This document shows positions 228-35,084 of a stretch of DNA of 40,920 nucleotides, piece by piece. The notes below the pieces were generated by a model that was not told where the DNA came from, did not search any database, and saw only the letters and a program-made list of their open reading frames with translations. Position 1 is the stretch's first letter. The number at the start of each line of letters is the position of its first letter. A program made the position numbers and the translations under genes. The stretch comes from Candidatus Eiseniibacteriota bacterium (GTDB lineage: Bacteria; Eisenbacteria; RBG-16-71-46; JAGVPR01): positions 1-40,920 of the forward strand of contig JAGVPR010000103.1 in NCBI GenBank assembly GCA_020052115.1, in the 5' to 3' direction.

Positions 228-1373
228 TCATCCCCCCGCCGTTTCCGCCGCAGGCCACGTGCCGGAGATCAGCACGTCATCGCCGAAACGCGATACCTCG
301 ACCTGCTCGAGGCGCGGCGCTTCGGACGGATCGCCCAGGCCGAGAGCGCCGGCCCAGGCCAGCCCATCATCACCAAGGACGATCGGGGCCACGAACAGGC
401 GCAGCCGGTCCACGAGCCGCTCGCGAAGCAGCGCCGCCGCCACTCCCGCTCCACCCTCGGCAAGCACCCGGTTCATCCCTTCCGCCCCGCAGCGCTCGAG
501 GAGCGCACCGAGCGACACCCGCCCCGCCGTGTCGGAGGGCAGTCTCCATACGCTCACCCCGAGGGACGCGAGCCGGGAAGCCGCCTCCTCAGACCCCGCG
601 CCGCTTGTCGCCACGATCGTCTCCGCCGCGCCGTCCGTCCACAGGCGCCGATCGAGCGGCAGCGCCAGTCTCGTCGAGACCACGATTCGCCGCGGGCTCC
701 AGCCGCTTTCTTGGCGCGAAGCGGGCGCCGGATCCTCCGCGCGCGCCGTGAGCAGCGGATCGTCCGTTCGAAGCGTCCCCGCTCCCACGAGCACCGCGGA
801 AGCCGCCGCGCGCCAGGCATGGACTGCCGCGCGAGATCCTTCGCTCGAGATCCAGCGCGAGCCGCCTCCCGCCGTGGCCAAACGCCCGTCGAGACTCACG
901 GCCAGCTTCAGCTCGACGAAAGGCCGGCCGGTCGTGACGTGCTTCAGGTACGCCTCGTTGAGACGCCGGGCCGGCTCCTCGAGAAGGCCGACATCCACCA
1001 GCACTCCGTTCGAGCGCAGCCGGTCCATGCCGCCGCCCGCGACCCCGCGGTTCGGATCGTGGACCGCGCACACCACGCGGCCGACGCCGGCGCGGAGAAT
1101 CGCTTCGGTGCAGGGCGGGGTCTTGCCGAGATGGTTGCAGGGTTCGAGAGAGACATACAGTGCCGCGCCGCGCGCTCTTTCCCCGGCTTCGTCGAGGGCA
1201 GCGACCTCCGCGTGGGCGCCGCCGAAGTGGGCGTGGAATCCGCGGCCGACGACCTCGCCGTCACGGACCACGACCGCGCCGACCAGAGGGTTCGGGCTCA
1301 CCCGGCCGCTTCCCTTGGCCGCCAGGCCCAGCGCCTCGACCATGAAGCGCTCCTCTTCGCGCCGGCTTGTCAT
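228..1373 (-). CDS. ribD: bifunctional diaminohydroxyphosphoribosylaminopyrimidine deaminase / 5-amino-6-(5-phosphoribosylamino)uracil reductase
   Basis: ORF 228..1517 (-). The deaminase half has SPNPLVGAVVV...HAEVAAL...SLEPCNHLGKTPPC. The reductase half has ELKLAVSLDGRLA...VGAGTLRTDDPLLTAR. The start was moved to ATG 1373 (MTSRREEERFMVEALGLA...) because codons 1374-1517 overlap the riboswitch terminator and aptamer. ATG 1343 is an alternative start. Confidence 0.9.
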   Translation of the reverse strand: MTSRREEERFMVEALGLAAKGSGRVSPNPLVGAVVVRDGEVVGRGFHAHFGGAHAEVAALDEAGERARGAALYVSLEPCNHLGKTPPCTEAILRAGVGRVVCAVHDPNRGVAGGGMDRLRSNGVLVDVGLLEEPARRLNEAYLKHVTTGRPFVELKLAVSLDGRLATAGGGSRWISSEGSRAAVHAWRAAASAVLVGAGTLRTDDPLLTARAEDPAPASRQESGWSPRRIVVSTRLALPLDRRLWTDGAAETIVATSGAGSEEAASRLASLGVSVWRLPSDTAGRVSLGALLERCGAEGMNRVLAEGGAGVAAALLRERLVDRLRLFVAPIVLGDDGLAWAGALGLGDPSEAPRLEQVEVSRFGDDVLISGTWPAAETAGG

Positions 1374-1404
1374 CCACTCCACGACGCACCTCGCGCCGCC
1401 CAGC

Positions 1405-1446
1405 AAAAAACCCCGAGGCCGTAATTCACTGACTCGGCCGTCGGGG
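1405..1446 (-). terminator. intrinsic terminator, the expression platform of the FMN riboswitch
   Basis: Minus-strand RNA CCCCGAcGGCCG-agucagugaauua-CGGCCUCGGGG forms 11 bp with one bulge. It is followed directly by UUUUUU (1410-1405), about 30 nt upstream of the ribD ATG and about 25 nt downstream of the aptamer. Confidence 0.7.
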
Positions 1447-1470
1447 CGCAAGGGCACACAGCGAGCTCGG

Positions 1471-1598
1471 CTCTCCTTCTCCCATCCAGACTTTGACTGT
1501 CGGCTCCGTGATTTCAACGGATCGGCCCGTTCTCGCCGAACGGGGTCGCGGGCTATGACCGCCGGTGGGGACTTGCACCCCGCCCCGAAGGATGTCCG
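1471..1598 (-). promoter_or_regulatory. FMN (RFN-element) riboswitch aptamer
   Basis: Minus-strand RNA CAUCCUUCGGGGCGGGGUGCAAGUCCCCACCGGCGGUCAUAGCCCGCGACCCCGUUCGGCGAGAACGGGCCGAUCCGUUGAAAUCACGGAGCCGACAGUCAAAGUCUGGAUGGGAGAAGGAGAG. It carries the conserved FMN-aptamer blocks CUUCGGGGC.GGGUG.AA.UCCC.ACCGGCGGU, AGCCCGCGA, GCCGACAGU.AAAGUCUGGAUGGGAGAAGG. P1 pairs CCUUC with GAAGG. It lies directly 5' of ribD. Confidence 0.9.
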
Positions 1599-2143: not shown

Positions 2144-2605
2144 ATGGAGCTTCCGGTGCTGAACGCCTGCGCTCGCTGCACCGCACTCTGCTGCCGCTAC
2201 GTGGCCGTGGAGATTGACGAGCCGGAGGACGACAGGGACTACGACAACATCCGCTGGTACGTCTCACATGAGAACATCCAGGTCTACCAGGACGACGAGG
2301 GCGGATGGTACATCCAGTTCTTCACACGCTGCCGCCACCTCGGCCGCGAGAACGAATGCACCATCCATCCGAACCACTACCAGATTTGCAAGGACTACAA
2401 GATGCGCGAGTGCGAGTTCACGCTCGGCCAGGGAGGCGAGAAGCGCCTCTTCCGCCTTCCCGAGGACGTTGACCGCTACCTCGCCCTGCAGAGCGCCCGG
2501 CGCGAAGCCCGGGCCGCGCCCCCCCGCGCCTCCTCCCGAAACGGGAAGGGCCGGCCGTCGCGAAACGGCCGGCCGCATCGGCGGCAGAAGACGGGCGCGC
2601 GCTAG
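2144..2605 (+). CDS. YkgJ/UPF0153-family cysteine-cluster (CxxCxxCC-type) protein with an Arg-rich C-terminal tail
   Basis: ORF 2114..2605 (+). MELPVLNACARCTALCCRYV...FTRCRHLGRENECTIHPNHYQICKDY matches the family pattern C..C..CC ... C.fL....C.I(Y/H)..(R/H)P..C(R/K). GGGAGGAG lies 3-5 nt before ATG 2144. ATG 2114 is the alternative start. Confidence 0.7.
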   Translation: MELPVLNACARCTALCCRYVAVEIDEPEDDRDYDNIRWYVSHENIQVYQDDEGGWYIQFFTRCRHLGRENECTIHPNHYQICKDYKMRECEFTLGQGGEKRLFRLPEDVDRYLALQSARREARAAPPRASSRNGKGRPSRNGRPHRRQKTGAR

Positions 2606-2994
2606 GGCGGCGACCAGAGGTGCGCCACGGGATCAATCAAACAGTCCACGTCCGACGGAAGGCCCTGCGTCACGGTGATGTCATAATCCGTGAAGATGCC
2701 GTCGTTACTGAGAGGGCACTCGCTCATCCGCGCCGACATCATGCCCGCGGCCACGAAGAAGCCGCTGTTCACGATGCCGTCGGGCATCGGGTTCTCCATG
2801 CAGTAAACCGTCGTCCACGTGAAGATGTTTTTCTGATTCACGCGGCACCCCCCGAGCCTGGCGTCATCTTCAGCGCGCAGGAAGTTCGGCAGCGCGATAG
2901 CGGCGAGGATTCCGATGATGACGATCACGATCATCATCTCGATGAGCGTGAAGCCGTCCTGGCGGCGTCCGGCGTGTCGTCTCTCGTCTAGCAT
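2602..2994 (-). CDS. type IV pilin / pseudopilin-like protein (prepilin-type N-terminal cleavage/methylation domain)
   Basis: MLDERRHAGRRQDG|FTLIEMMIVIVIIGILAAIALPNF is the classic G/FTLIE prepilin-peptidase site plus a hydrophobic alpha1 helix. The globular part contains four Cys. AAGGAG lies 8 nt before the ATG. No other pil/gsp genes are in the window. Confidence 0.85.
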   Translation of the reverse strand: MLDERRHAGRRQDGFTLIEMMIVIVIIGILAAIALPNFLRAEDDARLGGCRVNQKNIFTWTTVYCMENPMPDGIVNSGFFVAAGMMSARMSECPLSNDGIFTDYDITVTQGLPSDVDCLIDPVAHLWSPP

Positions 2995-3054: not shown

Positions 3055-3250
3055 CTCGATGTCGCCACCGCGGCCCTTCGCGCGCGGGTGCGCTGCCGCC
3101 TAAACTAATACACCGTAGTCACTTGCGGTACTGGCGACGCTGCGCCCCCGGAGTCCCGCCGTGGCCCCCCCGTGCCGAATGCAACCCCGTTGCGAAGAGC
3201 ACGCCCCCAGCGATCCTACGCCGGAGAGAACCGCTCACCGGCACTCGGAC

Positions 3251-3289
3251 AAAAAGAAAGCAGGGCCCCGCGCCTTCGCGAGGCCCTGC
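3251..3289 (-). terminator. rho-independent terminator closing the giant-gene / barrel-OmpA transcription unit
   Basis: Minus-strand RNA GCAGGGCCUCGCG-AAGG-CGCGGGGCCCUGC forms a 13-bp stem including one G.U pair. It is followed by UUUCUUUUU, 42 nt after the stop at 3332. Confidence 0.8.
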
Positions 3290-3331
3290 CCTTCCTGTCG
3301 GAGATGGAAACCCGCGGGCTGCCTACCGCGG

Positions 3332-4954
3332 CTACTGCTTCAACACCTGGTGGAACTCGATACGCCGGTTCCGGGCCCGACCGAGTTCGGTGTCGTTAGT
3401 GTCAATCGGCTTCGACTCCCCAAAAGTCTTCGGAATGAGCCGATCTGTCTCCACACCCTTGTTGACCAGGTACTGCTTCACCGCCTCGGCGCGCTTCATC
3501 CCGAGCGACTGATTCGCGTCATCCGAACCCACGCCGTCGGTGTGGCCATGAATCTCCACCTGAACTTCCGGATTCTCCCGCATGAGGCGGGCAACCTCCT
3601 CGAGCACAGGAATCGGGTCCGCGCCGACGATCTCGGCCGTCCCGAACTTGAAGTTGATCCACGCCATCGGGAAGTAGAGCGGCGCCTCATCCGGGCAGCC
3701 GTCGGTGTCCTGATAGTTGTTGAACGTCTCCTTGCTGTTCGGGCACTTGTCGTCGGCGTCCAGGATGCCGTCCTGATCGTTGTCCACTTCAGGGCAACCA
3801 TCATCGTCCTGGTAGCCGTCGAAGTCCTCGGCCTGGTTCGGGCACTTGTCCTTGGAGTCAGCTATCCCGTCGCCGTCATTGTCCGACTCCGGGCAGCCGT
3901 CCGTGTCCTCGTACCCGTCGAAGTCCTCGGCCTGGTCCGGGCACTTGTCCATGTCGTCGGCAATGCCGTCCAGATCGCGGTCGTTCACCTTCCGCGCCGA
4001 CCCGCCACCGACCCACTCCTCGCGCCCGAAGGCGACGCCGAGGGAGATGCGGTGGCTCTCATCGAGGAAGTCCTCCGGCTCGATGAGGTAGGCGTAGTCC
4101 AGGTCCACCATCCGGAAGCGGAAACCGACGCCGCCCGAGAAGCGGCCTTCGTCCAACCCCAGGCGCGGACCCGCGCTGAAGTTGTCCGCGAGCGGCATGA
4201 AGTACTCGCCGCCGGCGTGGAAGATGTAATCCTCGTCATCGCGCATCTTCTCGATGTCGAAGGCGAGGGTCAGGCCATCCACCGGAAGCACGCCGATGCC
4301 CACGCGCAGGTTCGACGGGACGGTGTTCGTCCCGTCGTCGCTGCTGCCCGTCTTCGTCGCGATGTCCTGGATCGCCACACCCAGCTTCAGGTAGTCCGTC
4401 AACCTGGCCGACACGCCCAGGTCGAGGCCATAGCCCGTGTAGCCGTCGTCCTTGATGTTCTCAGCCCCGTTCTTTGTGAACAGGAGCTTTCCCGTCGCGC
4501 CCACGGAGACCATCTCGAAGTTCCGCGCGTAGGACAGGAGCACCGCGTTGTCGTTGTAATCGAAATTGCTCGTCGGCGCGCCGACGTCGTCCGCACCGGG
4601 AATGTCGGAAACCCCCGAGTTGATCCACCCGAGGCCCAACGTTCCCCAGTCCCACATGTGAGAGACCGCAAAATAGTTGTGCTTGCGGTCAACGTTCATC
4701 CCGGCTGCCATCGTCGCATGCAGCTGGGTGCCCGTCGCGTATCCGAGCCCCGCGGGATTCCAGACGTTCGCCGTCACGTCGTTCGCAACGCCGACGAATG
4801 CCCCGCCCATCGCGAGCGCGCGGGCGCCGACTCCCATGCGGAGATACGGATTGGCGTCGTTGCTCGTGCTCGTCGCGGATGCGAGCGAGGGCAGGATCAG
4901 CGCCCCCACGGCGATCGCCACGATCACGGAAGGCCACCATCTCCGACCGTGCAT
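3332..4954 (-). CDS. outer-membrane protein: PorV/PorQ-like beta-barrel fused to three thrombospondin type-3 (TSP3) repeats and an OmpA-like peptidoglycan-binding domain
   Basis: Signal peptide MHGRRWWPSVIVAIAVGALILPSLASA. The barrel has the N-terminal hallmark YLRMGVGARALAMGGAFVGVANDVTANVWNPAGLGY (nt 4745-4837). There are 3x DxDxDGIxDxxDKCPxxxEdFdGYqDxDGCP (nt about 3689-3985). The OmpA_C domain is NFKFGTAEI...VEIHGHTDGVGSDDANQSLGMKRAEAVKQYL...GRARNRRIEF (nt about 3341-3667). AAGGAGG precedes the ATG. Confidence 0.85.
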   Translation of the reverse strand: MHGRRWWPSVIVAIAVGALILPSLASATSTSNDANPYLRMGVGARALAMGGAFVGVANDVTANVWNPAGLGYATGTQLHATMAAGMNVDRKHNYFAVSHMWDWGTLGLGWINSGVSDIPGADDVGAPTSNFDYNDNAVLLSYARNFEMVSVGATGKLLFTKNGAENIKDDGYTGYGLDLGVSARLTDYLKLGVAIQDIATKTGSSDDGTNTVPSNLRVGIGVLPVDGLTLAFDIEKMRDDEDYIFHAGGEYFMPLADNFSAGPRLGLDEGRFSGGVGFRFRMVDLDYAYLIEPEDFLDESHRISLGVAFGREEWVGGGSARKVNDRDLDGIADDMDKCPDQAEDFDGYEDTDGCPESDNDGDGIADSKDKCPNQAEDFDGYQDDDGCPEVDNDQDGILDADDKCPNSKETFNNYQDTDGCPDEAPLYFPMAWINFKFGTAEIVGADPIPVLEEVARLMRENPEVQVEIHGHTDGVGSDDANQSLGMKRAEAVKQYLVNKGVETDRLIPKTFGESKPIDTNDTELGRARNRRIEFHQVLKQ

Positions 4955-4988
4955 CTCTTCACCCTCCTTGGCGGGTTGTCCACTGGCG

Positions 4989-5041
4989 CCACCTCGGCAG
5001 CTGAGGTGGGGTCTGGGGGCGGGGCCCGGAGCCCCGCCCCC
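4989..5041 (-). other. two GC-rich intercistronic hairpins between the giant gene and the barrel-OmpA gene
   Basis: Hairpin 1 spans 5015-5041: GGGGGCGGGGC-loop5-GCCCCGCCCCC, 11 bp, starting 12 nt after the stop. Hairpin 2 spans 4989-5009: CCACCUC-loop7-GAGGUGG, 7 bp. No U-tract follows either one. Confidence 0.4.
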
Positions 5042-5052
5042 CGTGGCGCCTA

Positions 5053-8000
5053 CTAATCTCTCCAGATGACGACCTTGAGATTGACGTTCTGCGTCCGCGT
5101 GCCGTCCGTCACCGTCAAGCGCGCAATGTAGACGCCGTTCGCCAAATCACCGCCGTCGTCCGTCTCGCCGGCCCAAAGCATGTCCACCGGACCCGCCGCG
5201 TGAGTGATGCGGCTGGCCAGTGTAACGACCTTGTCGCCTGCGAAGTCGTAGACCTCGAGCGATACATCGGCCTGCCGGCCGAGCGTGAACGTGAAGTGAG
5301 CCGTTCCCTCACCCTCCGCCGAATTCGGATTGAACGGGTTCGGGTAGACCTTCGGAGCGAACACCTCGAGGTTGTCCGTGCAGACCATGAAGTCGAACGG
5401 AACCTCGAAGCGGTTGCCCAGGCGATCCACACCGCTCACCGTTCCGGAGTACGTCCCGAACGAGAGCGGATCGGCGGCCGTAGCCGCCACCGTGACCGTG
5501 AGCGTGCCCTGGTTGTACGTGGGCGGCGCAACGGTCACTTCGCCTTCCGGACCCTGCAGCGCAACCCGGAGGCTTGTCGCGTCCACACCCGCTCCGATGT
5601 CAGCAACCCGGAAGGTGAGGACCACGTTGTCCACCGGGCTCACACAGGCGCCGGTCTTCGGAGCCAGCAACTGGACCGTCGGAGCCGAGCGATCCACGAT
5701 GAACCGCTGCTCGACGTACGGCGATCCGGCGTTGCCGACCTCGTCACGCCAGCCCTGCAGGTAGATGTGCATCTCCTGGCTCTCCCCGTCGAAGAACAGG
5801 CCGTCGCAGAGAAGCACCGGCTCGCTGCCCACCCACAGCGTGTCGAGCTGATCGCAGCCGAAGCCCCAACCGTCGGAGTTCTGCTCGATCTCCTTCACGC
5901 TGTAGAGAGTGACCTCGAGAACGTCGCGGTCATCAATGGCACCGCCGCCAACGATCGGCATGCTCACGAGCAGCGTATCGCTGGGCGAGTACTCCTCGAG
6001 GGACGGGCTCAGGTACGGGACGAGCTCGTCGGCCGTGCCCTGGTGCAGCAGCACGCGCTCTTCGATCTCATCCACGTCGTTCTGGTCATCTTCCCAATCC
6101 ACGAGCCACAGGTCGTACTTCAGGCCCTCATCCCAGTAGGTCGAGATCGGATCCTGAGTCTGCTCTTCGCGGACGTGGATCCCCGCCTCGCCATCGAAAG
6201 CCTGCGCCTGGAGCATCGTGTGCGGGTTCGTCAGGAAGCTCGTCGGTCCGATGTAGCCGGCGATGTTCCTCAGCAGCGGATCGGAGACGAACCCACCGCG
6301 GAACGCCACGGTGGGAGCCTTGCGATCCACCCCGAACGACGCGAACGGGGTCGCCGGGTCGAGATCAACCCAGGTATCCGTCTCGTATGTCCGGAACCGG
6401 ATGTTCAGCGTGTGCTGCCCAGCCGCGAGGTAATCCACCGAGCGGTCGGAGTGCTTGTAGGTGAGTTCGTACATCGTGCCGTCGTTGTTGACCTGCTCGA
6501 CGTCGAAATCACCGTTGCCGAGAACGTAGCCCGTACCGCTAGCCGCGACGATGCGGTTGTCGATCCAGACTTCGATCTCTTCGTCGTCAATGCCTTCACC
6601 GCTGTAGTCGTTCAGGTATGCGAGGATCTTCGGATCGCGATCCGTGAACCCGTTCGACCACGGATGGAAGTTGTACACGTACACCGGAGCGTTCGCCGTC
6701 GGCACGAAGAGCGACCAGATGTGGCCGACATCCTCGTCCGAATCACCGAAGATCTCCGCGTCCAGCGAAGCCGCCCGGAACGTCACCAGGTTGTTCAGCG
6801 TGTCCACGGAAACGTGCGTGACCGCGACGGCGCTCCAGTACTCGTCGTCGTAGTCGTTGCCGCTCTGATCGAGCCACCTCGGCATGATCAGCTGCTCGTT
6901 CCCCTGGAGACCGAGAGCTTCGAGTTCCTCGTCGGTGTAGCTCATCGTGACCAGGGCGTTGTAGCCCAGGTCGAAGGCGCCGCCGCCGGAGGTCCACTCG
7001 ATGTCGTAGACGTTGCCGAAGCGGGTCACGTACAGACCCTGATCGTAAGAGACAGTCGGCGCCTCCGTCGGCGCCAGGAGCAGGCACCCTGCCACGCCGC
7101 AGCCGCTCGGGATGTAGACCGACAGACCGTCGATCGAAACCACCCCGTTCGTGCCGAGCGCGTCGGTCACCTGGTAGCTGGCGATGAGCGTCTCCTGCAT
7201 CTCGATGTCCACCGTGTCCGGCGTCGCCGGGCTGAGGATGTCGTTAGCCCTCTCCGCCAGCGCCGTGACGCTGATGTTCATCTCGCCGCAGTTCGCGATC
7301 CCCGAGAGGTTCAGCACGCCCGTCCACGTCACATCGCTGTCCACCATCTTCGTGAAGTCAACGATCTGCTCGGTCGTGTTCCCGTCGAGGTCCTCGGACA
7401 CGGCGATCGCCTTCGGCATCTCGCTCGGGTCGGCGGTCGCCACCTTCAGGACCACGTTGCCCTGGCTCGGAGCGCTCAGGTCAACGCTGGTGATCCTGTT
7501 GAAGTCGAGCACCGCCACGAGCTTCTTCGACTGATCCGGATTCATGACCAGGTCCGCAACCAGGACCGGCGCGTTCACGTCGTCCCGGTTCCCATCGGAG
7601 TCCTTCGCAAGCGCGCGGATCCGCATCCGCTCCACAACGCTCGCGTCGAAGGCCGAGAGGTTGAACTTGGCCATCCAGAGATTGTCCTTCGGGAACTGGT
7701 CGGCGATGACCTCGCTCCCGATCCCGATGTTGATCCAGCCGAGCCCGTCCGGATCCGTGCCGGCCGCCGGCCAGGTGGCGTTGACGATGTCGTACTGGAA
7801 CTGCACCTCGGTGATCTCATCGTCGCTGTAGGTGAGCGCATACACCGTGGATTCGGTGTTCGGCTCGTCGCCGTGCGGGATGACGTCGGGGTCGAACCCG
7901 GCGATCCGCGCGATCGGCGGCGTCTTGTCAATCACGTTCACCTGGACGATCTTCGAGATCGCCATGTTGCAGGCCGTGTCGTATGCCAGGACCCGCAGGT

Positions 8001-11000
8001 AGTACACACCCTCCGGCAGGCCCGTCGTGTTCCACACCACGTTCGCCGTCACGTCGGTCGGGTCGCCGGCATCGTGGGTCGGCTGAACGATGCCGAGATC
8101 CTGCCAGCCGCCGCCGCCGACCTGCGCCGCGATCTGAACACCCAGCGCCGCCAGATTCTGGCCGAAGTCGCCGTTGATGTCGAACACGGCGCCACCGGTC
8201 TGGAGAGCGGCGTTCGTGTAGTCCAGAACGGCCGCGCCGAGGCTGGTGGTGATCACCGAGTACACGGTGACGTTCGCACCCTGCAGTGCCGGCAGGACCA
8301 CACCGAGTCCGTCGCCCTGAGTCGGCTCATCGCCGACGAGGATGAAGAACTTCTGCGCGCCCGGCCGGAACGTGTAGTGCTGAAGGCTCTCGACGAGGGC
8401 CTCGAGACCATGCTCGGCTCCCGAGCGTCCCGTGCCGACAGCCTGAACCATCGTCTGGAAGACCGACGTGCTCGACGTGAACTGGCCCGTCCCGACCAGC
8501 GGCGTGCCCGTCGAGCCGTCCGTATTGATGATGCCGCTCGGGTCACCGAACCAGGCGACGGCCAGCTGGACGTCCTTGCCCGCGAGGGCGTTCGCGAACA
8601 CCTGGGCGTTCGCGGCGACCGCGCTCTGGTAGGAGCCCATGCTGCCCGACCCGTCAATGACCCACACGATGTCGGCCCTGCCGCCGCCGCCCGCGATGTC
8701 GCCCGCGAGAACCTGGAACTGCAGCTTGTTGACCCAGGTCTCGGCGGAAGCCGGGATGCAGGGCTCGTCGTCGTCGGCAGAGGCGTGGATCTTGACCGCC
8801 GTGCCGAGCGTGACGTCCGTGATCGTCCCGAAGTCCACAGGGTCCACCGTGGTGTCGTTCGTGTAGTTGACGATGTTCGTAATGGCCACTTCAGGCCCGA
8901 TGTGGTCAACCGTCACGTGCCGGAAGGTGCCGTCGGTGTTCGTGTAATTGAGGATGTCCCTGTTGCCCGCACGGTCATCGTAGGTCACCCGGAGATCGTA
9001 GAGGCAGCTCTCGAGGTCCGAGATATCCCACGTGGTCGAGTAGGTGTTCAGGATGTCGTCCACGAGCGGCGTGGACGGCGTGATCGTGGCATACGTCCAG
9101 AACGGATCGTCGTCAGGATCGGACGCCCTCTTGTACTCGTAGATCGGCCGACCCGTGTCATCCCTGCGCCAGACGTCCGTGTCCGTCGAGACCGTGATGA
9201 GGTCCACGATCCGGCCGTCCGTCGAGAAGGTAAACACGTCGCCCACCTCGAAGTCGTCGTTGGCGATCGGCATGCCGTCGCTGTCAACGCCCGGCGTGAA
9301 CTGCACCCAGACCGTCCCTTCGATCCACACCTGCGAACCGGTTGTGACACCGGCGCCGTTGTGGCCGTTGGAGGCTGTCCAGTCGAAGGTCGCCGCGCCG
9401 ACGTCGCCCGAACTCGTCATCATGATGCTGTACACGACGAGAGAGTCAGGCACGGTCCCGTGCGGAGCCACCCAGCCGCGGTTACGCGGATCCGGCCCGC
9501 GGTTCGGGATCATCGACTTCTGCTGCACGATATCGAGACTGTCGTTGATCGTGAGCGTCGCCGCCGTGAAGCCGTCCTGCCACGGCAGGATGCACTCACC
9601 GGCTTCCACGTCGCCTTCGACAGGCAACCACGTCGCCGTCGGAGCCGTGTGGTCAACGATCATGATCACGATCGGCGGAGCGCTGTCGCGGTTACCGGCA
9701 TCGTCCTCGGCGATCGCCGCGAACTCGTACCGGCCTTCAGCGAGCGGCGTGGTGTCCCAGTTCCTGAGCACCCATGTGAAGTCGCCCGTGGTGTCCCTGT
9801 CGCCGTCGGCGAGCGTCCACGTCGTGGCGCCCTCCGGCCGGTAGAAGAACTCCACGAACTCCGTGTCATGGTCGCCCTTGAGGATGGTCGCCCAAATCTC
9901 GACCGCCCCGCGGACGTGCTCCTCCTCCGGGAACTCCACTTCACGCTCGTCGCCCACCGCACGCACGAGCTTGGTGATCGTGGCAACCGGCGCGATCGTG
10001 TCCTGCACGTGCAGCTGCAGGCCACGCCCGTCGATCATCGCCTGGACCGCCGTGTCCGTGTTGAGCAGGAGGTCCGAAGACGCCGCCACGACGTCGTATG
10101 TGGCCCCGACCGTCAGCATCGGGGTCATCTGGTTGAGATCCCAGTCGAACGAGTAAGGCCTCGTCTCGTCCGGGTTCACGTCGGTGTCGTCATAGCCAGG
10201 CTGCGCCGACTGCCACGAGCTGGGCACGTTGAGGTCGGTGTGCAGCTTGTACATGAACTCGATGATGTCATCCTCGGTTTCGGTCTCGGTGCGGGCGAAC
10301 GCCGTGAAGACCTGATTGCGTTCGACCGTTCCCTCGAACTCGAAGGCCGGGGTCGAAGGATCGAAGTCCATCGTCGCCATGGGCGCCGTGTTGTCCACGG
10401 TCACGTCGAACAGGACCGGGGAGCAGGCTCCCGACCCCCAGGCGTCCTTCTCGCTGTTGCCATGCACGTCCACCGCGTATGCCCGGACCTGCCAGTGGCC
10501 GTCCGGATAGATCGCGGCGCCGCTGCCGTCAATCGCGAGCGTGTTCCAGTTGATCATCCAGTCTTCGCCGAGGGTGTTGTCCGCTCCAGCAAACACCTCG
10601 TACGACACCGTGTCCGGCGTCGACTCGATGAGGATCCACTCGCCCGTAGGCATGCCGTCTCGATGCGCCTCGAAGTTCACGAGAGCGCGTCCGCCCGGCA
10701 GCATGGACTGGTCGCCGGCCGCCGTGGTCGCGAACAGCGCCACGGATCCGGCCACCCACGTCCCGTTCTCGAGCGTCGTCTCGGTCACATCCTGCGGCAG
10801 AATCTGGCCGCCGGTGGCCGCGACGTCCGTCAGACGGGTGTTGCAGGGCGCCGTGACGTCCTGGACGAGCACCGCATTATTCCGAACCAACATGGACCAG
10901 TTGCCAGCGCTGTCCCGTGCGGTCGCCCGCAGCGCGAACAGACTGTCGGCCCACGCCGTGTTCGTCGGAGTGGTCCACGAGATCTGCCACAGCGTCGGAT

Positions 11001-14000
11001 ACGGATCAACCGGAGCCGTCATCAGTCCGATGGTCGTCCAGTCGGCCTCGTTGATGCTGCTGGCCGGCCGGTACTCCATCCGGGCGCCGAACATGCCGCC
11101 CGACTCCATCGGAAGGCCCTGAAGAGCCTCGAAGTTATCGTCAATGGCCGCACCCAGCGGAGCGACATCGCCGCCCGCCACGTGCAGAGGATCGGTGTTC
11201 ATGTCGGTGCCGCCACCCTCCATCTCGTAGGTGCCGGCGAAGAGATCCTTGATGTAGGGCGAGGCGGGGTCGATCCGGAGCGACTGGCCCGGATCATCGC
11301 TCGAGCTGTTGCCCGCGTAGTCGGTCGCGAGCGGACGGAACTGGTACGCCTTCACGGCGGCAGCTTCCGACGTCGCGCCGTTGTCCCCGCCCTGCATTGC
11401 GAGGAAGAGGTTCGGCAAGCCGTAGTACTCGAGGATCCACTGACCGTTCGCGGCGCTGTCGCCGCCCGGGTCGTCGCCCTGGTAGTCACGATACTCAAAC
11501 GTGCCGATCGTGAGCCACCGCGGAGCCGTTTCGTCCTCGCGCGGATAGCGGTAATCGTCGCGGAACTCGAGCGTCATCATCTCGATGTCCGTGGACGAGT
11601 CGCCGTCATCCTCAGCCTTGAATGTGACCGTCGTCGGCAGAACCGGCACGAACTGCGTCTCCTCCGGAAGATAGTCCGGGATGATCAGCGTCGTGTGGTT
11701 CTCGACGAGCGGCAGGCCGCCCGCCTTGATGAGCACGGCCGCCGGCGGAGTGTGGTCGAACCGCACCGTGATCATCGGCACCGTCTCCGTGCCGTCGATC
11801 ACCCCGTTGCCGTCCGTGTCGCCGCCGATGTTGCCGTCGGCGTCGCGCACGATGCCCCGGAGCTGGTACAGGCCGTCCGTCCACCGGTCCGTGTCCATCG
11901 TCCAGATGAAGAGCTTCCGGTTCGCCGAGACCGGAGTGTCAACCAGCGGAACCGTGGTGACGTCCTCCCATGCGACGCCGTCGCCGGAGATCTGAAGCGT
12001 GCCCGTGACCGCGTCGTACTCATTGAGACCGGTCGCCATCGCCCAGACCATTGCCTGCCCGGTGAACACCATCAACGGATCATCCGGCCAGTAGGTCTTG
12101 CCGTTGGTCATGTTGGTCAACTGCCAGAAGTGCGCCACCGGGCCGTCCATGTCGTTGAGGATGACGAGGCTCGTCCTCCCCTGCTCGCCGAGGTTGCCCA
12201 CGGCGTCCACGGCCAAGGCCCGGACTTCCACGTACGCGTCGCCCGAGCGGCCGAGGTCGTCGAAGATGACCTGACGGATCGACTCGGTGTTCAGCGTCGC
12301 GGTGTAGTAGTGCTCCCCGTCCTCGACCGTCTCATCGTCGAGGTCCGGGGTCTCGAACTGCACGCCCATGATCGGCGTGAAGTAGTCGTCGTCCTCGTTG
12401 ACCTGAGTGACGTCAATGTCATGCCAGCTGCTGTCCGCCGGCGACGGCGACCACTGGAAGACCACGGCCACCGGCTTCTCGGCCAAAGTGTACTGACCGA
12501 AGAAGGTGACCGGATCCCCGATGCGGACCACCGCTCCGTTGACCGGCTCCGTCGGGCCGCCGTTGATGGAGGCGAGCTTCACCTCCGCCAGCGCCGGCAT
12601 ACCGTCGATCGTGAGGTCGGTAAGGTACTCATCCGGCGTGTAGCTGACGTTGAAGCCGTCATCGAACACCACCGCGCGGATCTGGAACACCGACTGAGCC
12701 TCGTCGGCCTCGTCAATGATCCCGTCGTTGTCGTTGTCAACCTGGTCGCCTTCGGTGGACTCGTCAACGACCAAGTCTCGATCGTTGTCGAGATGGTCGT
12801 CCACGGAACCCGGCGTCGGCGTGGTCCACGTCACGAACCAACCGCTGCTGACCGGATCGGGGTCCTGGCCCACGATGGTCGCCCAGCGCCACGACTGTCC
12901 GTCGTAGTACTGGAAAAGGACCTTCGCCGGGTCAACGATGTTGACCCCGCCCGGCTCATCCACCAGGTACGTCTGCAGCCCGACGAGCCACGCCGCCGGA
13001 GCCGAAGTGATCGGCTCGAGCGTGTTGCTCGGCGTGAACGGGTTGTTCATGACGTTGACGGCGTAGGTCTGCGTGATCGGCGTGCGATCAATCACCGTCC
13101 GCTTGCCGACCGTGCTCGCCGAGCCGTTGCCGTCCTCACCCGAGAACTCCCACCGGTAGACGCCGTCCGGAAGCGTGGAGATGTCCACGTTCGTCCAGTA
13201 ATCAACGTTCGCCGGAAGGATGATCCGGGAATCGCCGAGGTTGAAGTGCCACGGCGTCGGATCGCCGAGTGTCGGAGCGACGTAGCCGACCGGATTCGTG
13301 TCGTTGCGAGGATCGTCAACCGGATTCTCGGTGCCGTTCCCGTCGATGTCGAAGTTGTCGCCGATCGTGTCCACGAGGAACTGGTACCTGATATTGCTGC
13401 CCTCGCTGACCTCACCCACGACCACCGTCCACACATTCGCGGACTGCGTCATCGGGTAGAGCTCGTTGAGCAGGTCCTGCACCCCGTCCGCATCACGATC
13501 GAAGAACAGCGTCACGTTCTCGAAGTCGCCCGGCGTGACCAGGTGATACCAGTCGGCCTCGAAGAACTTGAAGGTGATCGGCATGTAGCCGTGCTCGGTG
13601 ATGTCCTCCGCCAGCGGCGTCATCGTCTGCTCGGCCACCACGGCGCCGGTCGTCTCATTGATGAGGCGCGCGATCACCGAGGACGGAACGAGCGGATCGG
13701 CCGGAGCGTCGTCGTCCACGAGCAACAGATCCACCTCGTCGCCGGAGAGCTTCGTCACCGGCGGGAGGCTAGAGAGTTCGTTGATCGAGTTGCCGAGCTT
13801 CGCCGTAATCACCTCGTAGAAGGCCGGATCATCCACGTCCTGGTGCCCGAGGCCGCCGACATGGAAGTTCGGCGAATCGGTGTCCAGGACCGTGATGATG
13901 GCCCACTCGGCCGTCGGCGGCTCCTTGTTCGTGAGCGGCGACTGCGTCTCGGCGCGGGCCATGATGGACCATACGCCGTTGTTCGTGCCGTCGCGCGCCG

Positions 14001-17000
14001 TCTGCCAGTCCACCGTGTACGGATCGGCCTCGTCGCCGATCGCGATCAGCGTCCACGAGGACGTGTGGTAATCAACCATCACCGCCGCGGCCGGATCGGA
14101 CGCGAAGATGATCTGGTCGGTGCCGTAGTCAATCGCGAAGTCGGTGACCGCCGGACTCGGATCGGCCGCGAGGTCCGCGAACGTCCGGTACGTGCCGGCC
14201 GTGCCGCCGATGTCAACCCGCACGTCCGTGCCGTTCAGGTTGTCGCCGTCCGGATCCGTGGTGTTCTCGAGAAGGTCCGCCACCCAGAAGCCGGCGTACG
14301 TCCCCTGCGTCGTGAACGCCGGAGTGACCGGCTCGTCCAGAACCACGCTCGCGCGATAGAAGCGAACGAGGTCGAACGCGTCGTCCACCGGGTTGCTCGC
14401 CAGGTCAGCAAAGATCGTCGCGATCGCGCCCTCGTTGATGGTCGCGTCGAGCGGATCGGTGACGGTCGCTGCCATGTGCGTGATCATCAGCCAGCCGCCC
14501 TTCGTCTCGTCGATCACCGAGCGGTTGCCCGGCGAATCGGTCGCGACGATGGCGAACTCGTACGGGCCGTTCAGGCCGCTGACGTCCCAATCGAAGATGT
14601 ACGGATACGTCGTATCGGACGCCGCACGCGTCCATGCCATCCACTGGTCGCCGACGGCTCCCGGCTGAGGCAGCAGGTCGTAGTCGGCGAGCCCGTTGGC
14701 GTCGAGATCCTGCTCCCGCGGCCGGAACCACAGGCTGACGTCCACGACGCTACCCTGCTCGTCGAGAACGCCGTGGTCGGCTGCGGTGGCGAAGATGCTC
14801 AGCGTATTGGCCAGAGTCTGCGTGCCGGTCGGGGCGAGGATGTCGCCGTCCGGCTCCGAGACGGTGATCAGGGTCGTGTTCGGAGCGACGTTGTCGGTCA
14901 CATGGACCACGATCTGGGTCATAGCCGCCAGATCGTCGCCGCCTTCGCACTCCTGCTCTGCCGTCGCGCGCAGGTAGACGAGCCTGTCGTTCTCCAGCTC
15001 GCCAAGCGTGTTCTTCGTGAGCCAGACGAAGCGCCACGGAGAGCTGCGCTCCGGGGCCCCGTCAATCGTGGCTTCGTTCGGATCCGCGTTCACGCCGTCC
15101 TTCATGAACGGAAGGAGCGGCAGGCCGCGGTCCTGATCGTTCTCGGTCACGACGGTGGAGATCAGGTAGGCGGGCACCGTCCAGCCGATCGCCGTCCGGC
15201 GCGTGTCGCCCACTTCGACCACCGTCAGGTCCGTATTGCCGGCGCCCTTCGTGTAGACTCCGTCGCTCCCGTCGAACATCTTCAGGAGCCCGGTCGGGGC
15301 GTCGGTGAAGAAGTCTTCGTCGTTGTTGATGCCGTCAATCTGGTTCCAGTTGACACCGTCGAACGACCACTCGAGGAACACCGCGTCGGTGCCGGCCTCG
15401 TCGTTCGTATCAATCAGGACCTCCATCACGGTGTTGCCGTTGTTCTCCGAGATGACAGTCCCGTCCGCCGGCATCAGGAAGGACGGAGCCGGCGCCGTGT
15501 TGTCGATGAAGATGTGGATGCGCTGGCCCGGATCGCTGCGGTCGGCGTCGGAGTTGCCCAGAGTATCCAGGGCGATCGCCTCCACCGTCACGTAGCCGTC
15601 CGGCAGCCCGTTCGTATCCCACGGCCACACGTAGTCGGCCCATGCCGTCGTGTTCGTGCTGCCCGGCGAGTCCGCATCCTCATCCGCACCGATCTCCGTC
15701 CAGAAACCGCCGACGACCGTGCCTGCGATGTCGCTCAGGACCGGCGCGTAGCTGCTGGAAGCGAGTTCGTAGAGGATCCCGCCGGTGGTCAGCGTCACGG
15801 TGTCGTACGCATACACGTCACCGGCGTACTCGCCGTTATTGGCCGCCGCGTCGGCCGCCGCGTTCAGCTCGCAGATCGCGAAGACCTTCGCGTTGGTCGC
15901 ATCGACGATAGCCACCATGGCCGCCTCTTCGGCCGGCTCATGGTTCGCCATGAAGTCGAGGTCCGCCGCCGTCCCGATCTCCGGCGTCGTGTCGGTGATC
16001 AGGATCAGGATGCGCTCAGCGCCCGGCCGCCAGTTGATCCCCATGCCCGCGCCCGCAGCGTTCTGAAGCACATCGTACGTCGGGACTTCGGTCTCGTTCG
16101 GCGTCAAGAGGTTGAGCGCCGTCGAGAACGCTGCGACGTCGGCCGTGAGGTTCTGCCTCAAGACCGGCACCGACTCGACGTCCACGAGCCCGAGACGGAA
16201 GTCCACGTTCGTGGCCGAAAGCTCGTCCGCGAAGCCCTGGACCGCCGCCTGCACGCTCAGAATCGGATCCTGCATCGAGCTCGAAGAGTCGATCAAGAAC
16301 ACGATGTCGGCGACCGACGGACCGGCTTCCTCACCGCGGATGTAGCGGTAGAGGACCCGGGTCGAGCCGACGTCGTCGGCCGGGAGGCCGTAGACCACCG
16401 AATGGAGGTCCACGATGCCGCATACCGTGGAGGAATCGGCCGGCGAACCGTGCGGCGAGAAGTAAGCGTTCAAGCCGCTCCGGTCAACCGTCACCGTCAC
16501 GATCGTCGGATTCGGATCGAAGTTCCCCTCGATGTCGTACGCCACCGCGCGGAGGTCGTACTCGCCTTCGGGGAACAGCGCCGGATCCGTCGTATCCCAC
16601 GTCACGACGACCGGGTACGTGAAGTCGGCGACGTTGCCCGACCCGTCAATCGTCCCTGTCACCGTGGCGATCGGGACCCATGTCACGTGGTCGCTCGTGT
16701 ACTCGAAAACGATCTTCTCGATGTCGTTCTCGCAAGCGGTCGTATCACCGTCATCCACCGCGAGGACGCCGCCCGGCAGAAGGTCATCCAGCCTGCCGTT
16801 CGAGTTCAGATCTTCCGAGTACGTCGTGAATGAGCCGTCCTGGTTGAGGTCCCAAGCGATCTCGTCGCCCGGCGCCGCGAGGCTGTCCACCACGCCGTCA
16901 CCGTTGAGATCGCAACCCATATACCGCTCGGCGTCGTTCTCCGTCACCGAGTCGATGATGTGGTTCTCGTTCACATCTTCGTGCTGGACCCACAGCTCGA

Positions 17001-20000
17001 TCGCGTTGTAGGCCGGGACGCGCACACCGTACTTGAAGTACTCGGTGCCGCTGTCCTCGAACCAGCTCTTCGCGTACACCCGCGTGATCACGGCGTGCGG
17101 CATCGTGCCGTCCACCGCCACCTCGTGCAGCTCGGCCAGGTCGGCCGGGCTGTCGTTACCCATGATCACCTCTTCCTCGTTACCGATCTCGATACCGAGA
17201 GTCGGGTCCGTAGGATTCGGATCCGGGTTCGGACGGAAGATGTACGGCTGCCAGGTCTCGGTCGTGATGTTGTACCACTCGAGCCGGTCGGCAGCGCGGG
17301 CGACGAAGTAGTAGTCGTCCTGCGAGTCGGCCGGGCTGTTCGTCACGAAATCAGGCGTCCAGCTGATGTGCTCCTCGAGCGAGTGGATGCGCCCGGTCGC
17401 GTGCGTCGCGTCGGTGATCAGGTTGACGAAATCAGGATCGCTGTTCTTCGCGTAGAGCAGCTCGACCCACTGGACGTCCGTGTCCACGCTGGTCGCGCCG
17501 GCGTGATAGACCTCGTCGTCGTAGATCGTGCTGTCGTTCGGAATCAGCGTGCCTTCCGTGGTCGCCAGCTTGAACTCGGCCCCCGGCGCCGTGTTGTCCA
17601 GCAGGAAGATCGTCGGCGCCGCGTAGGTCTCGACGACGTTCTCGGCCTGGTCATAGGCCACCGCCTTCACCCAGATCCCGTCCTTGTCGTCAATCGGATT
17701 GCCCGACAGGCGAAGCTGCGTGAGGTACGTGTCCCACTGCCAGGTCCAAGTCGTCGCCGGAGCCGGCTTGTGCACGACGAAGTTGAAGTTGTCGCGCACG
17801 AAGAACATCCCGGTCCGGTCGAGGCCGTCGGCGTAGTCAATGCCGTCCACGCCGTCCTCGTCGTCGTCCATGGAGGTCGTGTAGGTGTTGTCCGACGGCG
17901 TCGGGTCCGGCTCGCCGTTGACCGTGTCGCCATCGAAGTCAACGCCGAAGCCCTCACCGAGGACCCCGTCGTTGTCCAGGTCGGTGCCGGGCGACTCGAA
18001 TTCGAAGTCGTCCACGTAGCCGTCCTGGTCGTTGTCCACGAAGTCGGCGTCGTAGGCGGCGATCGCCTGGCCGACCTGGGCGTCCATTTCATCAACCCCG
18101 ACCTCGCCGGCGGACGGACGTCCGTTGCCGTCGATGTCGAAGGCGATGACCCAGTCGCTGTCGTCGTCGAGGCCGTTGAAGCCGGCCGCGCCGCCGTCAC
18201 CGGCTGCGTCTCCCGCCGGGTCGTAGTTCAGGTCGCTCCAGTCCGCGAGCGGCGGCACCGAGCCCGGCACCGTGAAGTCCGCGTACTGCATCCGGATGAA
18301 GAGGACGTCGTTGTCCGACGGCGTATAGATGTCCAGCTCCGTCAGACGGCGACCCTCGAGAATGTCGTTGAGCTCCCGCCCCTCGCGATCCCTCGCCGCA
18401 CCCTTAGCGGGCTGGGCCGGGATGTAGGGGCTCGAGATCTCGAACTCGTTGTCGCCGAAGAGCTGATTCGGCGGGCTGTCCGAGTGGACGATGCTGACGC
18501 CGTCGCTCATCGTGATCGAGCCGTCGCCGTCGGAATCGAAGAACCCGTACAGCCGGATGTCCGAGATCTTGGTGACGGACGGGGCGTTGTTGTCAATGTG
18601 GATCAAGCCCGCGCCCGGCGCCGACGCGTTGTTGATCGGCGCGTCGGACGGCCCCGTGTTCAGCGACGCGAAGATCATCCCGTCCACCGGGATCGTCGCG
18701 TCGAAGTTGTTGCCCGAGAGAATCTGCTGCGGCTCCGCCGCGACGTTGATCGTGACGAACAGGTTCGTCTGGCTGTCGACGTCGCTGTCCTTCTTGGCCG
18801 CCGGCAGCGCGGAGTTCACTCCGTTGCCGAGCGCCGTCTCATCAATCACGTCGAGGATGTCGCCGTCGCCGTTGTAGTCAACGCCCGCGGCCGGTTCACT
18901 GAGGCCGGCCGTCAGCGTCCCGCTGTGGTTCCGGTCCTCGGTCAGAGCCGGAATCGGCGTCGCGGGCTCGAGCCGCCAGGTGCGGTTGTCACCCGGCGCC
19001 TTGGGAGCGACCAGCGTCGCCTGGCCCCAGTTCGTGTCCACATCCGGGTCGAAGATGCCGTTGCTGTCGGCGTCCACCCAGATGAACACGCCCGAGATGT
19101 CCGTCGGCTCCTGGGCCTGGTACGGGTTCATGACCGTGAACGACGTCAACATGTCGTCGAACGTGTCCACGACCCCGTCGGCGACCGGCGGCACACCTTC
19201 AGGCGTATCGGTGTAGATATCCTCCTCAACGCCCGAGGTCCCGTCGTAGTTGCCGTCGGTGTCCGCATCCACCCAGCCGGCGAGGATGTTGTCGGCGGCG
19301 ATCGGCGGATCCGAATTCGGCACCGTGCCGAAGAACGAGATCGCATGGCCCGGGTCGTAGGACTCGGCGCCCTGGAAGAGGACCACGTCCGCGGCGGCCG
19401 TGTAGTAGCCGTCTCCGTCGAGATCAATGATGATCTCGTCGTTCTCGGCGTAGTCGTAGCCGTTCACCGGCGAGTCCGGATCGCTCTCGACCCGCTCGTT
19501 CCAGAACTTGTAGTCCGCGTCGAACGCGAAGAGCGGCGCACCCAGGACCGTCGTCTTGGTCAACACGTCCTTGCGGATCGTGTCCGGACGGGTCGTGAAG
19601 GTGCCTCCGCCGTCAACGTCGCGGATGATGTCCTCGGCGAGGTTGTCGAACGTCCCGTTCGCCGGGTTGTTATCCACGAACATCTCGAGATCGAAGTCCG
19701 TGATCGCCCCGACGAAGCTCGGGAAGGCGACGACTTCGCCGACGTTCCACGCCTCATTGACGTTGAGGTCGGCCACAACCGCCTCGCCCCACTGGTACGC
19801 CCCGTCACGCGGCGCGATGTCCACGTAGGAAGCCGCCGGGATCGGACCGGCGTTGTCGAGGTCGAGGTTGTGAGCGAGGCCGGCAGCGAGCACCGCCTCG
19901 CCGATGTCGGCGCGCAGATCGGCGTCCGCATCGTTGATGACGGCTTCACCGTAGTCGTAGTTCCCGTTGCCGCCGCCGCCGCCGATTCCGCCGTCGTCGA

Positions 20001-23574: not shown

Positions 23575-24016
23575 TCTCGGTTCCTCCTTGGTGGAATGAG
23601 AATTTGAAACCGGACGACGTCTCAAAAAGTTTATGAGTGACCTCCACAGACCAGGATTACCGCCTGCCTCACTTCCGTACGGCTCCACTTTGCGCCTCCT
23701 CTTCCTCGACCGGTCGCCCGCTTCGTGGGTCGCGGTGTGGGGTTCCGTCTCCCGGACCGACCAGCCTTCAGGGATACACACCGTTTCACCGATAGCCTGT
23801 GGGTCACTCGCGTTCAGCGATGCATTGACTTTGTGGCCACCGAGCGTTGCCCTTGAGCCCTCCTTGTCTTCAGCGCCCAACGACGATCGCCCGACCGGTG
23901 CCGCTCCCCTCGCAAGGGGAGACCGCATCGGGCGGGCCCATCCATATGTGCGCCCTGTTACTTGGGACGAATGAACGCCCCAACATCACCTCCGCGACGG
24001 GCTACTCCAAACGGTC

Positions 24017-24046
24017 AATTCGTCGCAGAATAATTCGCGGCAGAAT
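24017..24046 (-). repeat. two abutting 15-nt direct repeats (candidate operator) overlapping the -10 and +1 of the giant-gene promoter
   Basis: Minus strand ATTCTGCCGCGAATT (24046-24032) is immediately followed by ATTCTGCGACGAATT (24031-24017), 13/15 identical. Each unit is an ATTC-N6-GAAT inverted repeat. Confidence 0.6.
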
Positions 24047-24072
24047 ATGCCCACCGCCTCCAACCTTGTCAA
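24044..24072 (-). promoter_or_regulatory. sigma-70-type promoter about 460 nt upstream of the giant gene
   Basis: Minus strand TTGACA (24072-24067), 17 nt, CATATT (24049-24044). This is the best -35/-10 match I found in the 857-nt gap. Confidence 0.55.
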
Positions 24073-24431
24073 CAGCAATTTGTCTTCGCGCTCACCGAAC
24101 GTAGTTCCGTCGGTCCCGGCGGCAACAAGTCCTATTTTCAACATCCTAGGCCCCCGCCCGAGCAATGGACCTCCCTTCGGAGGCCCGCACGCAAAGAGAC
24201 ACGCGCCGTCCAATGTCCAGCGCGAGCACCTCGTTATCAGACCAACATTTGTGCCGTTTCGCGGTTGCCCGAAACCGCGGTACGCTAACATGCGTTTTCG
24301 AAAGGTGTCAAGGGGATTCGAGGAAAACGCCGCACCACACGGAGCGAGTCAGCCTCCCCGACATCGCCACACTTCATCGGAGATGGCGGAAAGACCTTTA
24401 TCATTTTTTCCTGGTCCGGGCGGTTCGATGC

Positions 24432-25472: not shown

Positions 25473-25555
25473 TCAACTCTCCTTGGTGTTCTCCACGTCG
25501 TGAACCCGGGGCAGGGTAAGGCCGCTCCCATCAGGGTCCGGAGGAAATCAGGCGG

Positions 25556-34882: not shown

Positions 34883-34941
34883 GTCGTCCTCTCACGTCGT
34901 TCCGGCCGCCCCGCGGGGCGCGGCGCCCGGGTTCCTCGCGC

Positions 34942-35026
<85 letters not shown>

Positions 35027-35084
35027 TTCGAGAGCCATCATAACAGGAGCGGTCCGGGGGGTCTCCCCGGACCGCCGCCGACAC

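Follow-up and report, generated by a model that had tools for sequence, protein, structure and literature searches.

The stretch of DNA analysed here (the window; 40,920 nucleotides, contig JAGVPR010000103.1 of the Candidatus Eiseniibacteriota bacterium assembly GCA_020052115.1) encodes on its reverse strand a 540-residue protein (3332..4954(-)) in which a predicted outer-membrane barrel of the PorV/PorQ family is continued by thrombospondin type-3 (TSP3) repeats and an OmpA_C domain, and this gene lies directly behind that of a 6,173-residue giant whose tail resembles the C-terminal sorting domains (CTDs) of type IX secretion systems (T9SS). The locus raises the question of what a barrel of this family, equipped with an apparent cell-wall anchor, does for the giant that precedes it. 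The T9SS is, to our knowledge, known almost only from Bacteroidota, in which PorV serves as the common carrier of the type-A cargos, and private barrels, of the PorP/SprF type, are confined to type-B cargos. The answer that we favor, at a probability of roughly 0.65, is that the barrel would act as private carrier and socket of the giant's CTD and that its TSP3–OmpA_C arm would tie this socket to the sacculus.

The open reading frame (ORF) of the barrel protein begins with a signal peptide, MHGRRWWPSVIVAIAVGALILPSLASA, as read from the sequence (residues 1–27, ending ...LPSLASA/TS; 4874..4954(-)). No lipobox cysteine is present, and all six cysteines of the protein fall in the TSP3 units. The PorV/PorQ-family domain comprises residues 34–309 (4028..4855(-)), the family as tested being NCBIfam NF033709 and the Pfam PF19572/PF03687 clan. 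NF033709 (PorV_fam) is matched over the full model (positions 3–326 of 326), at 114 bits when the entire protein is scored and 117 bits when only the barrel is used (cut-off 90); the Pfam PorV model by itself is weak (14.5 bits). In terms of orthology, the protein scores 39.8 bits with the PorV equivalog (cut-off 250), 41.7 bits with that of PorQ (cut-off 220), and 81.5 bits with that of PorV2 (cut-off 325), and is an ortholog of none of the three by these models.

The AlphaFold2 (AF2) model of the protein shows a 14-strand barrel at residues 76–309 (pLDDT ~85–90), ahead of which lies a non-strand, plug-like N-terminal segment (residues 35–72) that contains the most conserved motif of the family, GVGARALAMGGA...WNPAGL. 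The model further shows a floppy TSP3 linker and a well-folded OmpA_C domain. The top matches in a Foldseek search of the PDB are PorV chains from T9SS translocon structures (8gl6_F and 6h3i_F; E ~3e-13, TM on target 0.61–0.66), with FadL and TodX ranking after PorV, and a profile made from an alignment of 32 homologues (43–81% identity) matches the F. johnsoniae PorV sequence (6h3i_F) with an E value of 8.7e-17. As modelled, the barrel is a 14-strand FadL-type fold of the PorV/PorQ family. A PorV/PorQ-like barrel had been proposed in the first-pass annotation, and the family score, the strand count, and the closest PDB fold all agree with that proposal, with no unrelated porin ranking ahead of PorV.

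Following the barrel, residues 325–421 (3692..3982(-)) form three TSP3 calcium-binding units of the pattern DxDxDGxxDxxDxCP...DGCP. The D, G, and C columns are invariant in the 32-homologue alignment, including all six cysteines, which fall as one pair per unit (338/354, 371/387, and 404/420). The Pfam TSP_3 model (PF02412) by itself is sub-threshold (20.9 vs. 25 bits), and the 32-homologue profile matches the TSP3+OmpA_C portion of Capnocytophaga gingivalis OmpA (5wtl) over residues 322–536 with an E value of 3.4e-62. The OmpA_C peptidoglycan-binding domain itself (residues 435–530, 3365..3652(-)) scores 72.4 bits with PF00691 (cut-off 27.2), and its Foldseek matches are the C-terminal domains of OprF, Pal, OmpA, and PorE (rmsd 1.2–2.5 Å). 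Two of its residues, D473 (in GHTD) and R488 (in ...KRAEA; LSxxRA-type), are invariant among the 32 homologues; we take an Asp and an Arg of this type to contact diaminopimelate, as in the A. baumannii OmpA–peptide complexes (3TD5), and we infer that the domain binds peptidoglycan. The ORF, the hidden Markov model (HMM) scores, and the 5wtl match thus bear out the four parts (signal peptide, barrel, three TSP3 units, and OmpA_C domain) that the first-pass annotation had read in this protein.

The giant cargo gene occupies 5053..23574(-), with its ATG at 23574 preceded by the ribosome-binding site AAGGAGGAA. The protein has a mass of 663 kDa, which falls short of the "megadalton-scale" cargo announced initially, a pI of 4.05, and an Asp content of 11.4%; it comprises an N-terminal signal/anchor, two VWA domains, and Ig-like domains of the Big_3_3 and Big_13 families and contains 25 DxDxDG-like motifs. 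Its C-terminal domain (5053..5349(-), ending ...LKVVIWRD) is FlgD_ig/T9SS type-A-like, the type-A sorting-domain models used being TIGR04183, PF18962, and FlgD_ig (PF13860). The tail of ~90 residues passes TIGR04183 marginally (24.9 bits, cut-off 23) and scores 28.3 bits with FlgD_ig (cut-off 27), whereas the type-B model (TIGR04131) gives no match at E≤0.1. It aligns with Por_Secre_tail-bearing proteins, with an additional 4–5 residues in the last hairpin, and the last 134 residues of the giant align to the C terminus of the PorU model (E 4e-13). AF2 predicts a β-sandwich for the tail (pLDDT ~90), for which the Foldseek matches include PorU, FlgD, PorZ, and the translocon-bound NucA CTD; this result fits a T9SS CTD but is unspecific, as Fn3 and FlgD Ig-like folds score equally. 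A homologue search with the last 215 residues gave only six weak matches, from which a thin CTD alignment was built, and no named PorU/T9SS protein from Eisenbacteria was among the six.

The giant and barrel genes form one two-gene unit. The spacer between the stop codon of the giant and the ATG of the barrel gene (4955..5052(-)) measures exactly 98 nt, the distance originally given, and a Shine–Dalgarno sequence, AAGGAGG, sits 7 nt ahead of the ATG at 4954. The spacer contains strong nested GC-rich hairpins (minimum free energy −54.2 kcal/mol, z −2.2) that lack a T-run, and the terminator scan found no terminator-like site within it; the hairpin might make the transcript more stable or adjust how much of one product is made relative to the other. 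The sole terminator-like site after the gene pair is an intrinsic terminator at 3247..3292(-), with a 16-bp stem containing 11 GC pairs and a T-run, in accord with the strong terminator noted at first reading. On the upstream side, a consensus scan yields a sigma-70-like promoter candidate, TTGACA-17-CATATT (24044..24072(-); 1 site where 0.3 would be expected). The candidate, which is no more than a match to the consensus, is located ~470 nt upstream of the giant gene and would give the transcript a 5′ leader of about that length. The non-coding stretch of ~850 nt that separates the giant gene from a YchF-like gene (23575..24431(-)) has no match to an Rfam family.

Is the pairing of giant and barrel conserved beyond this locus? 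The nearest homologues of the barrel protein are proteins from metagenome-assembled genomes of Candidatus Eisenbacteria, named "PorV/PorQ family protein" or "OmpA family protein" by NCBI, and full-length matches in the species-representative genome collection number three, all from Eisenbacteria. Gene neighborhoods were surveyed with ORF-level gene calls and with purpose-built HMMs for the barrel, for the OmpA domain, and for the CTD, this last a small one made from ten sequences. A CTD-ending protein is encoded directly upstream in 14 of the 15 evaluable OmpA-fused homologues (paired fused loci L001, L002, L003, L081, L082, L086, L092, L093, L095, L108, L111, L112, and L114), and this protein is a giant wherever enough sequence is visible. 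At L001, L002, and L003, the same-strand upstream ORF is cut by the end of the locus (>3,290, >379, and >2,490 residues, respectively), and all three ORFs share the tail of the giant, ...LANGxY...K[VA][VA]IWR[ED]. More distant homologues follow genes for proteins of 5,068 residues (P0092, 43% identity), 5,085 residues with FlgD_ig (P0052), and 5,111 residues (P0077); the downstream genes vary among these three loci, and the pairing is kept down to 43% identity. The stand-alone barrels nearest to that of the window (~304 residues, PorV_fam 95–113 bits) also lie 89–92 nt after giants, of 2,849 and >3,332 residues.

A metagenome scan with a barrel-only alignment extended the comparison to 80 loci (L093–L172) at 28–47% identity, 66 of which could be evaluated by their upstream DNA. 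A same-strand CTD-ending ORF stands immediately before the barrel in 47 of the 66 (71%), and these barrel-adjacent ORFs account for 47 of the 61 CTD-positive ORFs among the 3,308 ORFs scanned. The upstream partners range from 272 to >3,299 residues. All six evaluable OmpA-fused barrels from the metagenomes follow a CTD ORF (five of >2,500 residues, the sixth cut at 534 residues). The pairing first proposed for this one locus is, then, conserved in the fused homologues and in most of the distant relatives, across varied downstream contexts. These counts bear on a rival view, in which the protein would be a structural tether of the OmpA kind, or a channel of the FadL type that takes hydrophobic substrates, and would lie beside the giant through operon history with no functional link to it. 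The FadL/TodX fold of the barrel and the occurrence of TSP3+OmpA_C cassettes on many unrelated N-terminal domains would both suit such a protein, whereas the frequency with which barrels directly follow CTD-ending ORFs, the persistence of the pairing at 28–47% barrel identity with or without OmpA, and the closer match to PorV than to FadL all speak for a functional link with the giant and make an unlinked tether or channel very improbable.

The CTDs that precede barrels appear to differ from other CTDs. By a rough measure, they mostly extend 24–31 residues past a conserved GxY motif and end in K[IV][AT]V..., whereas the generic CTDs in the same loci, like that of an S8 peptidase in the window, mostly extend ~20 residues past GxY and end in ...K[LM][IV][LV]x[KR]; the sequences hint at a possible cognate CTD subtype next to the barrels. 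An Eisenbacteria contig (L003) further shows a second CTD-gene/barrel pair (11798..13821) 4 kb downstream of its fused pair, in which the gene for a 442-residue protein with a CTD-like end overlaps by 4 nt that of an unfused PorV_fam barrel cut by the contig end. That two such pairs share a contig favors cognate partners over a single carrier for all cargos. Were the window protein the general PorV of the organism, a shuttle that takes every type-A CTD cargo from translocon to attachment complex, it would adjoin the largest cargo by chance. PorV is indeed its closest family and fold match, and the S8 peptidase (38365..40701) has a CTD without a barrel gene of its own. The PorV equivalog score, however, lies far below its cut-off, several PorV_fam paralogues occur per genome and each follows a CTD gene (L003), the adjacency to the giant is kept although the surrounding genes vary, and the giant-type CTD is unlike the generic one. 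A peptidoglycan tether is also hard to square with shuttling, for which the barrel has to depart from the translocon (PMC10994853). We consider a general PorV decidedly unlikely at this position.

The wall anchor is the variable part of the system. Sister loci encode the barrel alone, the barrel with OmpA, or the barrel with 2–4 TSP3 units and OmpA. A 470-residue homologue (P0121) with barrel and OmpA but no TSP3 occupies the same place as the window gene, between a FlgD_ig giant and ribD, and an unfused Eisenbacteria barrel (L088) has flanking genes (MazG, alanine racemase, and penicillin-binding protein (PBP)) that match those of a fused barrel with four TSP3 units (L081). As the giant and the barrel are kept while the anchor is present, shortened, or absent, the conserved unit is the giant plus the barrel. 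An exhaustive barrel-only search returned 8,447 cluster representatives at E≤1e-3, and the best 150 of these comprise 90 stand-alone barrels (~300 residues), 15 OmpA-bearing barrels (0–4 TSP3 units), and 45 barrels with other C-terminal extensions, which in the sample inspected include TPR, LysM, and PBP transpeptidase. In a neighbor-joining barrel tree, which carries no support values and is to be read with caution, the window protein falls in a clade whose members are all OmpA-fused (with 0, 2, 3, or 4 TSP3 units), and the remaining OmpA-fused groups are dispersed among stand-alone barrels.

The TSP3–OmpA portion is a promiscuous cassette. The patterns chosen for a genome-contig scan with the full-length alignment were TSP3 motifs, so that 77 of the 80 loci obtained were unrelated TSP3–OmpA proteins, none of which had a PorV-type N terminus by the barrel HMM or NCBIfam. 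In these loci (L004–L080), the TSP3+OmpA_C cassette is joined to varied N-terminal domains in proteins of 300–2,900 residues from Myxococcota, Fibrobacterota, Krumholzibacteriota, KSB1, and Latescibacteria, with tandem copies at L009, L010, and L011.

The optional nature of the anchor in sister loci would also suit a transient, cargo-specific carrier that picks up the giant at the translocon, in which case the CTD would be cleaved after transport, the giant would be released or attached elsewhere (e.g., to lipopolysaccharide), and the OmpA module would contribute to the stability of the envelope in general. PorU normally cleaves type-A CTDs (PMC9143113), and the CTD of the giant matches the type-A model. 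The cognate barrels described so far nevertheless keep the CTD of their partner (PorQ–PorZ, PorV–PorU, PorP–PG1035, and SprF–SprB), and the C-terminal 134 residues of the giant resemble the C terminus of PorU, which is retained. The wall-anchor fusion, moreover, recurs across several barrel clades, which suggests a load-bearing role. A carrier of this transient kind is in our view unlikely.

We therefore return to a private, wall-tethered socket and outline how it could operate. The giant would be exported by Sec and would cross the outer membrane via a T9SS-type route that recognizes its CTD. The extracellular loops of the barrel would bind the CTD of its own giant, as PorV binds cargo CTDs, and would retain it, as in the PorV–PorU, PorQ–PorZ, PorP–PG1035, and SprF–SprB pairs; with its CTD held in this way, the 663-kDa giant would remain plugged into the outer membrane by non-covalent contacts. 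In the periplasm, the disulfide-braced, calcium-loaded TSP3 spacer would reach the wall, where the OmpA_C domain would bind peptidoglycan. Such a tether would immobilize the complex and pass mechanical load from a long, acidic, calcium-binding fiber to the sacculus.

Several observations weigh against the tethered socket. The T9SS core genes (SprA/Sov, PorK/L/M/N, PorU, and PorZ) are absent from the 40.9-kb window, and among the papers covered none was found that links T9SS to Eisenbacteria or other candidate phyla, which counts against the proposal for Eisenbacteria in particular. The equivalog scores lie so far under their cut-offs that function cannot be transferred by orthology, and a barrel tied to the wall sits uneasily with the part that PorV plays as a mobile shuttle. 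One fused homologue (P0099, L085) has an ApbE gene upstream and no giant, 19 of the 66 distant relatives have no upstream CTD ORF, and the anchor is dispensable in sister lineages.

The locus and the survey together suggest that type-A-like cargos in uncultured lineages commonly have private PorV-family barrels and that the wall anchor supplied in trans by PorE can be fused in cis. A broader scheme, which we put forward tentatively and consider less likely than not, is that Eisenbacteria and neighboring uncultured lineages use a "one cargo, one carrier" form of type IX sorting. A subtype of type-A-like CTD with a long last hairpin (K[IV][AT]V..) would be recognized by its own PorV-family barrel, whose gene comes directly after that of the cargo, and the barrels of the largest adhesins would repeatedly have gained an OmpA tether, with or without TSP3, so that a load-bearing fiber would be anchored from its tip to the sacculus. 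If true, such barrels would make up a third class of carriers, next to PorV (type A) and PorP/SprF (type B), and would be for the T9SS what TraAB is in its own setting. The locus offers a compact two-gene system for studying how a CTD chooses its carrier, whether a retained CTD serves as a surface anchor, and how a 0.66-MDa fiber may be coupled to peptidoglycan, and it provides a functional label for thousands of metagenomic proteins named only "OmpA family" or "PorV/PorQ family."

The remainder of the window contains mainly housekeeping-type neighbors (ribD, purA, a serA-like gene, an aminotransferase, lon, clpX, clpP, tig, and fatty-acid oxidation genes). Just past the terminator of the gene pair lies a gene for a 130-residue prepilin-type protein (2602..2994(-); N_methyl motif, GFTLIEMMIV), which has no counterpart at this place in those related loci that were compared. 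An FMN riboswitch (1470..1596(-); Rfam RF00050, 103.5 bits) stands in front of ribD (228..1517), and in several relatives of the locus (L086 and L092) the riboflavin cluster likewise lies downstream of the giant and barrel genes. Upstream of the giant gene, the YchF-like GTPase is a real gene as judged from its translation (24432..25472(-)), and two tRNA genes (Rfam RF00005) are found at 25559..25631(-) and 34945..35026(-). The S8 subtilase (38365..40701(-)) is a secreted protein of 778 residues in which CarboxypepD_reg and MAM-like domains are combined with a CTD of the FlgD_ig/Por_Secre_tail type; it is a second CTD cargo in the window, with a short generic tail (...LLLIR) and no adjoining barrel gene.

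Several long ORFs in the window were rejected as genes. The two Arg-rich ORFs antisense to the giant gene, at 5200..16833(+) (3,877 residues) and 16960..23523(+) (2,187 residues), are taken as high-GC artifacts and could mislead gene callers. The ORF at 24165..25625(+), which is Arg-rich and without family matches, is likewise taken as a high-GC artifact, and that at 34892..35560(-), also Arg-rich and without family matches, overlaps the tRNA gene at 34945..35026 and is probably no gene.

One of the closest known systems is the PorE–PorP–PG1035 system of P. gingivalis, with porP-like/porE-like pairs in F. johnsoniae. PorP binds the type-B cargo PG1035 as well as PorE, the OmpA_C domain of PorE binds peptidoglycan, and non-mobile cargos are thought to be wall-anchored via such PorP–PorE pairs (PMC9143113). 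Common to that system and the window are a surface CTD cargo, a 14-strand barrel of the FadL family, an OmpA_C link to the wall (predicted here), and a barrel gene that adjoins the cargo gene (PMC9143113). In the window, however, barrel and OmpA_C domain are parts of one polypeptide rather than separate proteins, the barrel is of the PorV/PorQ rather than the PorP/SprF family and is paired with a type-A-like rather than a type-B tail, the spacer consists of TSP3 units rather than TPR/β-propeller/CarboxypepD_reg domains, and the host belongs to Eisenbacteria rather than Bacteroidota. The window protein is not a member of the PorP/SprF family (PF11751, TIGR03519), as no Pfam match to that family is found at E≤1 and the NCBIfam matches of the barrel at E≤1e-6 are only of PorV type.

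The gene order resembles that of sprB–sprF in F. johnsoniae, where the gene for a giant repetitive surface protein is followed immediately by that for a FadL-type barrel. SprF holds the 669-kDa SprB, whose secretion and attachment to the surface depend on it (PMC9143113). SprF, however, is a PorP-family barrel without a wall anchor and SprB is mobile and carries a CTD of type B, whereas the partner barrel in the window would be tethered to the wall, which implies a static fiber. The window barrel shares its family and fold with PorV (Fjoh_1555; 6H3I and 8GL6) and PorQ, which have no periplasmic extension and whose genes do not follow that of a giant cargo, in contrast to the window barrel on both counts. 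Inside the SprA translocon, type-A CTDs are enclosed by the extracellular loops of PorV (PMC10994853). PorU remains permanently attached to PorV, and PorZ to PorQ, each with its CTD uncleaved, and it has been proposed in a review that cognate PorV-like barrels protect the CTD from cleavage (PMC10202324).

The TSP3+OmpA_C region is clearly homologous to that of C. gingivalis OmpA (5WTL), which has the same Cys-paired, calcium-binding units. We assume that C. gingivalis OmpA carries a small OmpA-type barrel and serves as a general envelope tether; the window protein, by contrast, has a predicted 14-strand PorV-family barrel that is coupled to a cargo gene.

The overall layout is matched by TraB of Myxococcus xanthus, which consists of a signal peptide, an outer-membrane β-barrel, TSP3, and OmpA and is bicistronic with the surface receptor TraA; the two proteins form a 1:1 complex with TraA atop the barrel, and the OmpA domain of TraB anchors this complex to peptidoglycan and is needed for function (PMC12045341). 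The TraB model (NF033763) is in fact the top NCBIfam match of the window protein by E value (131.5 bits, cut-off 700). TraB identity was rejected, as only model positions 341–496, the TSP3–OmpA part, align, and no similarity between the TraB barrel and the window barrel was detected in this alignment. The partners differ as well: TraA is sorted by MYXO-CTERM/myxosortase, whereas the upstream partner in the window ends in a FlgD_ig/type-A-like CTD.

The initial view that both the architecture and its pairing with a cargo gene were uncharacterized therefore holds in part. The layout is known from TraB–TraA (PMC12045341) and the same link is assembled from separate proteins in PorE–PorP–PG1035 (PMC9143113), whereas no paper was found, within an incomplete coverage of the literature, on a PorV-family barrel fused to OmpA or on private barrels of the PorV family that serve type-A-like cargos outside Bacteroidota. 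By analogy with these systems, the window protein most likely works like PorP and PorE combined in one chain, or like a TraB dedicated to a CTD cargo.

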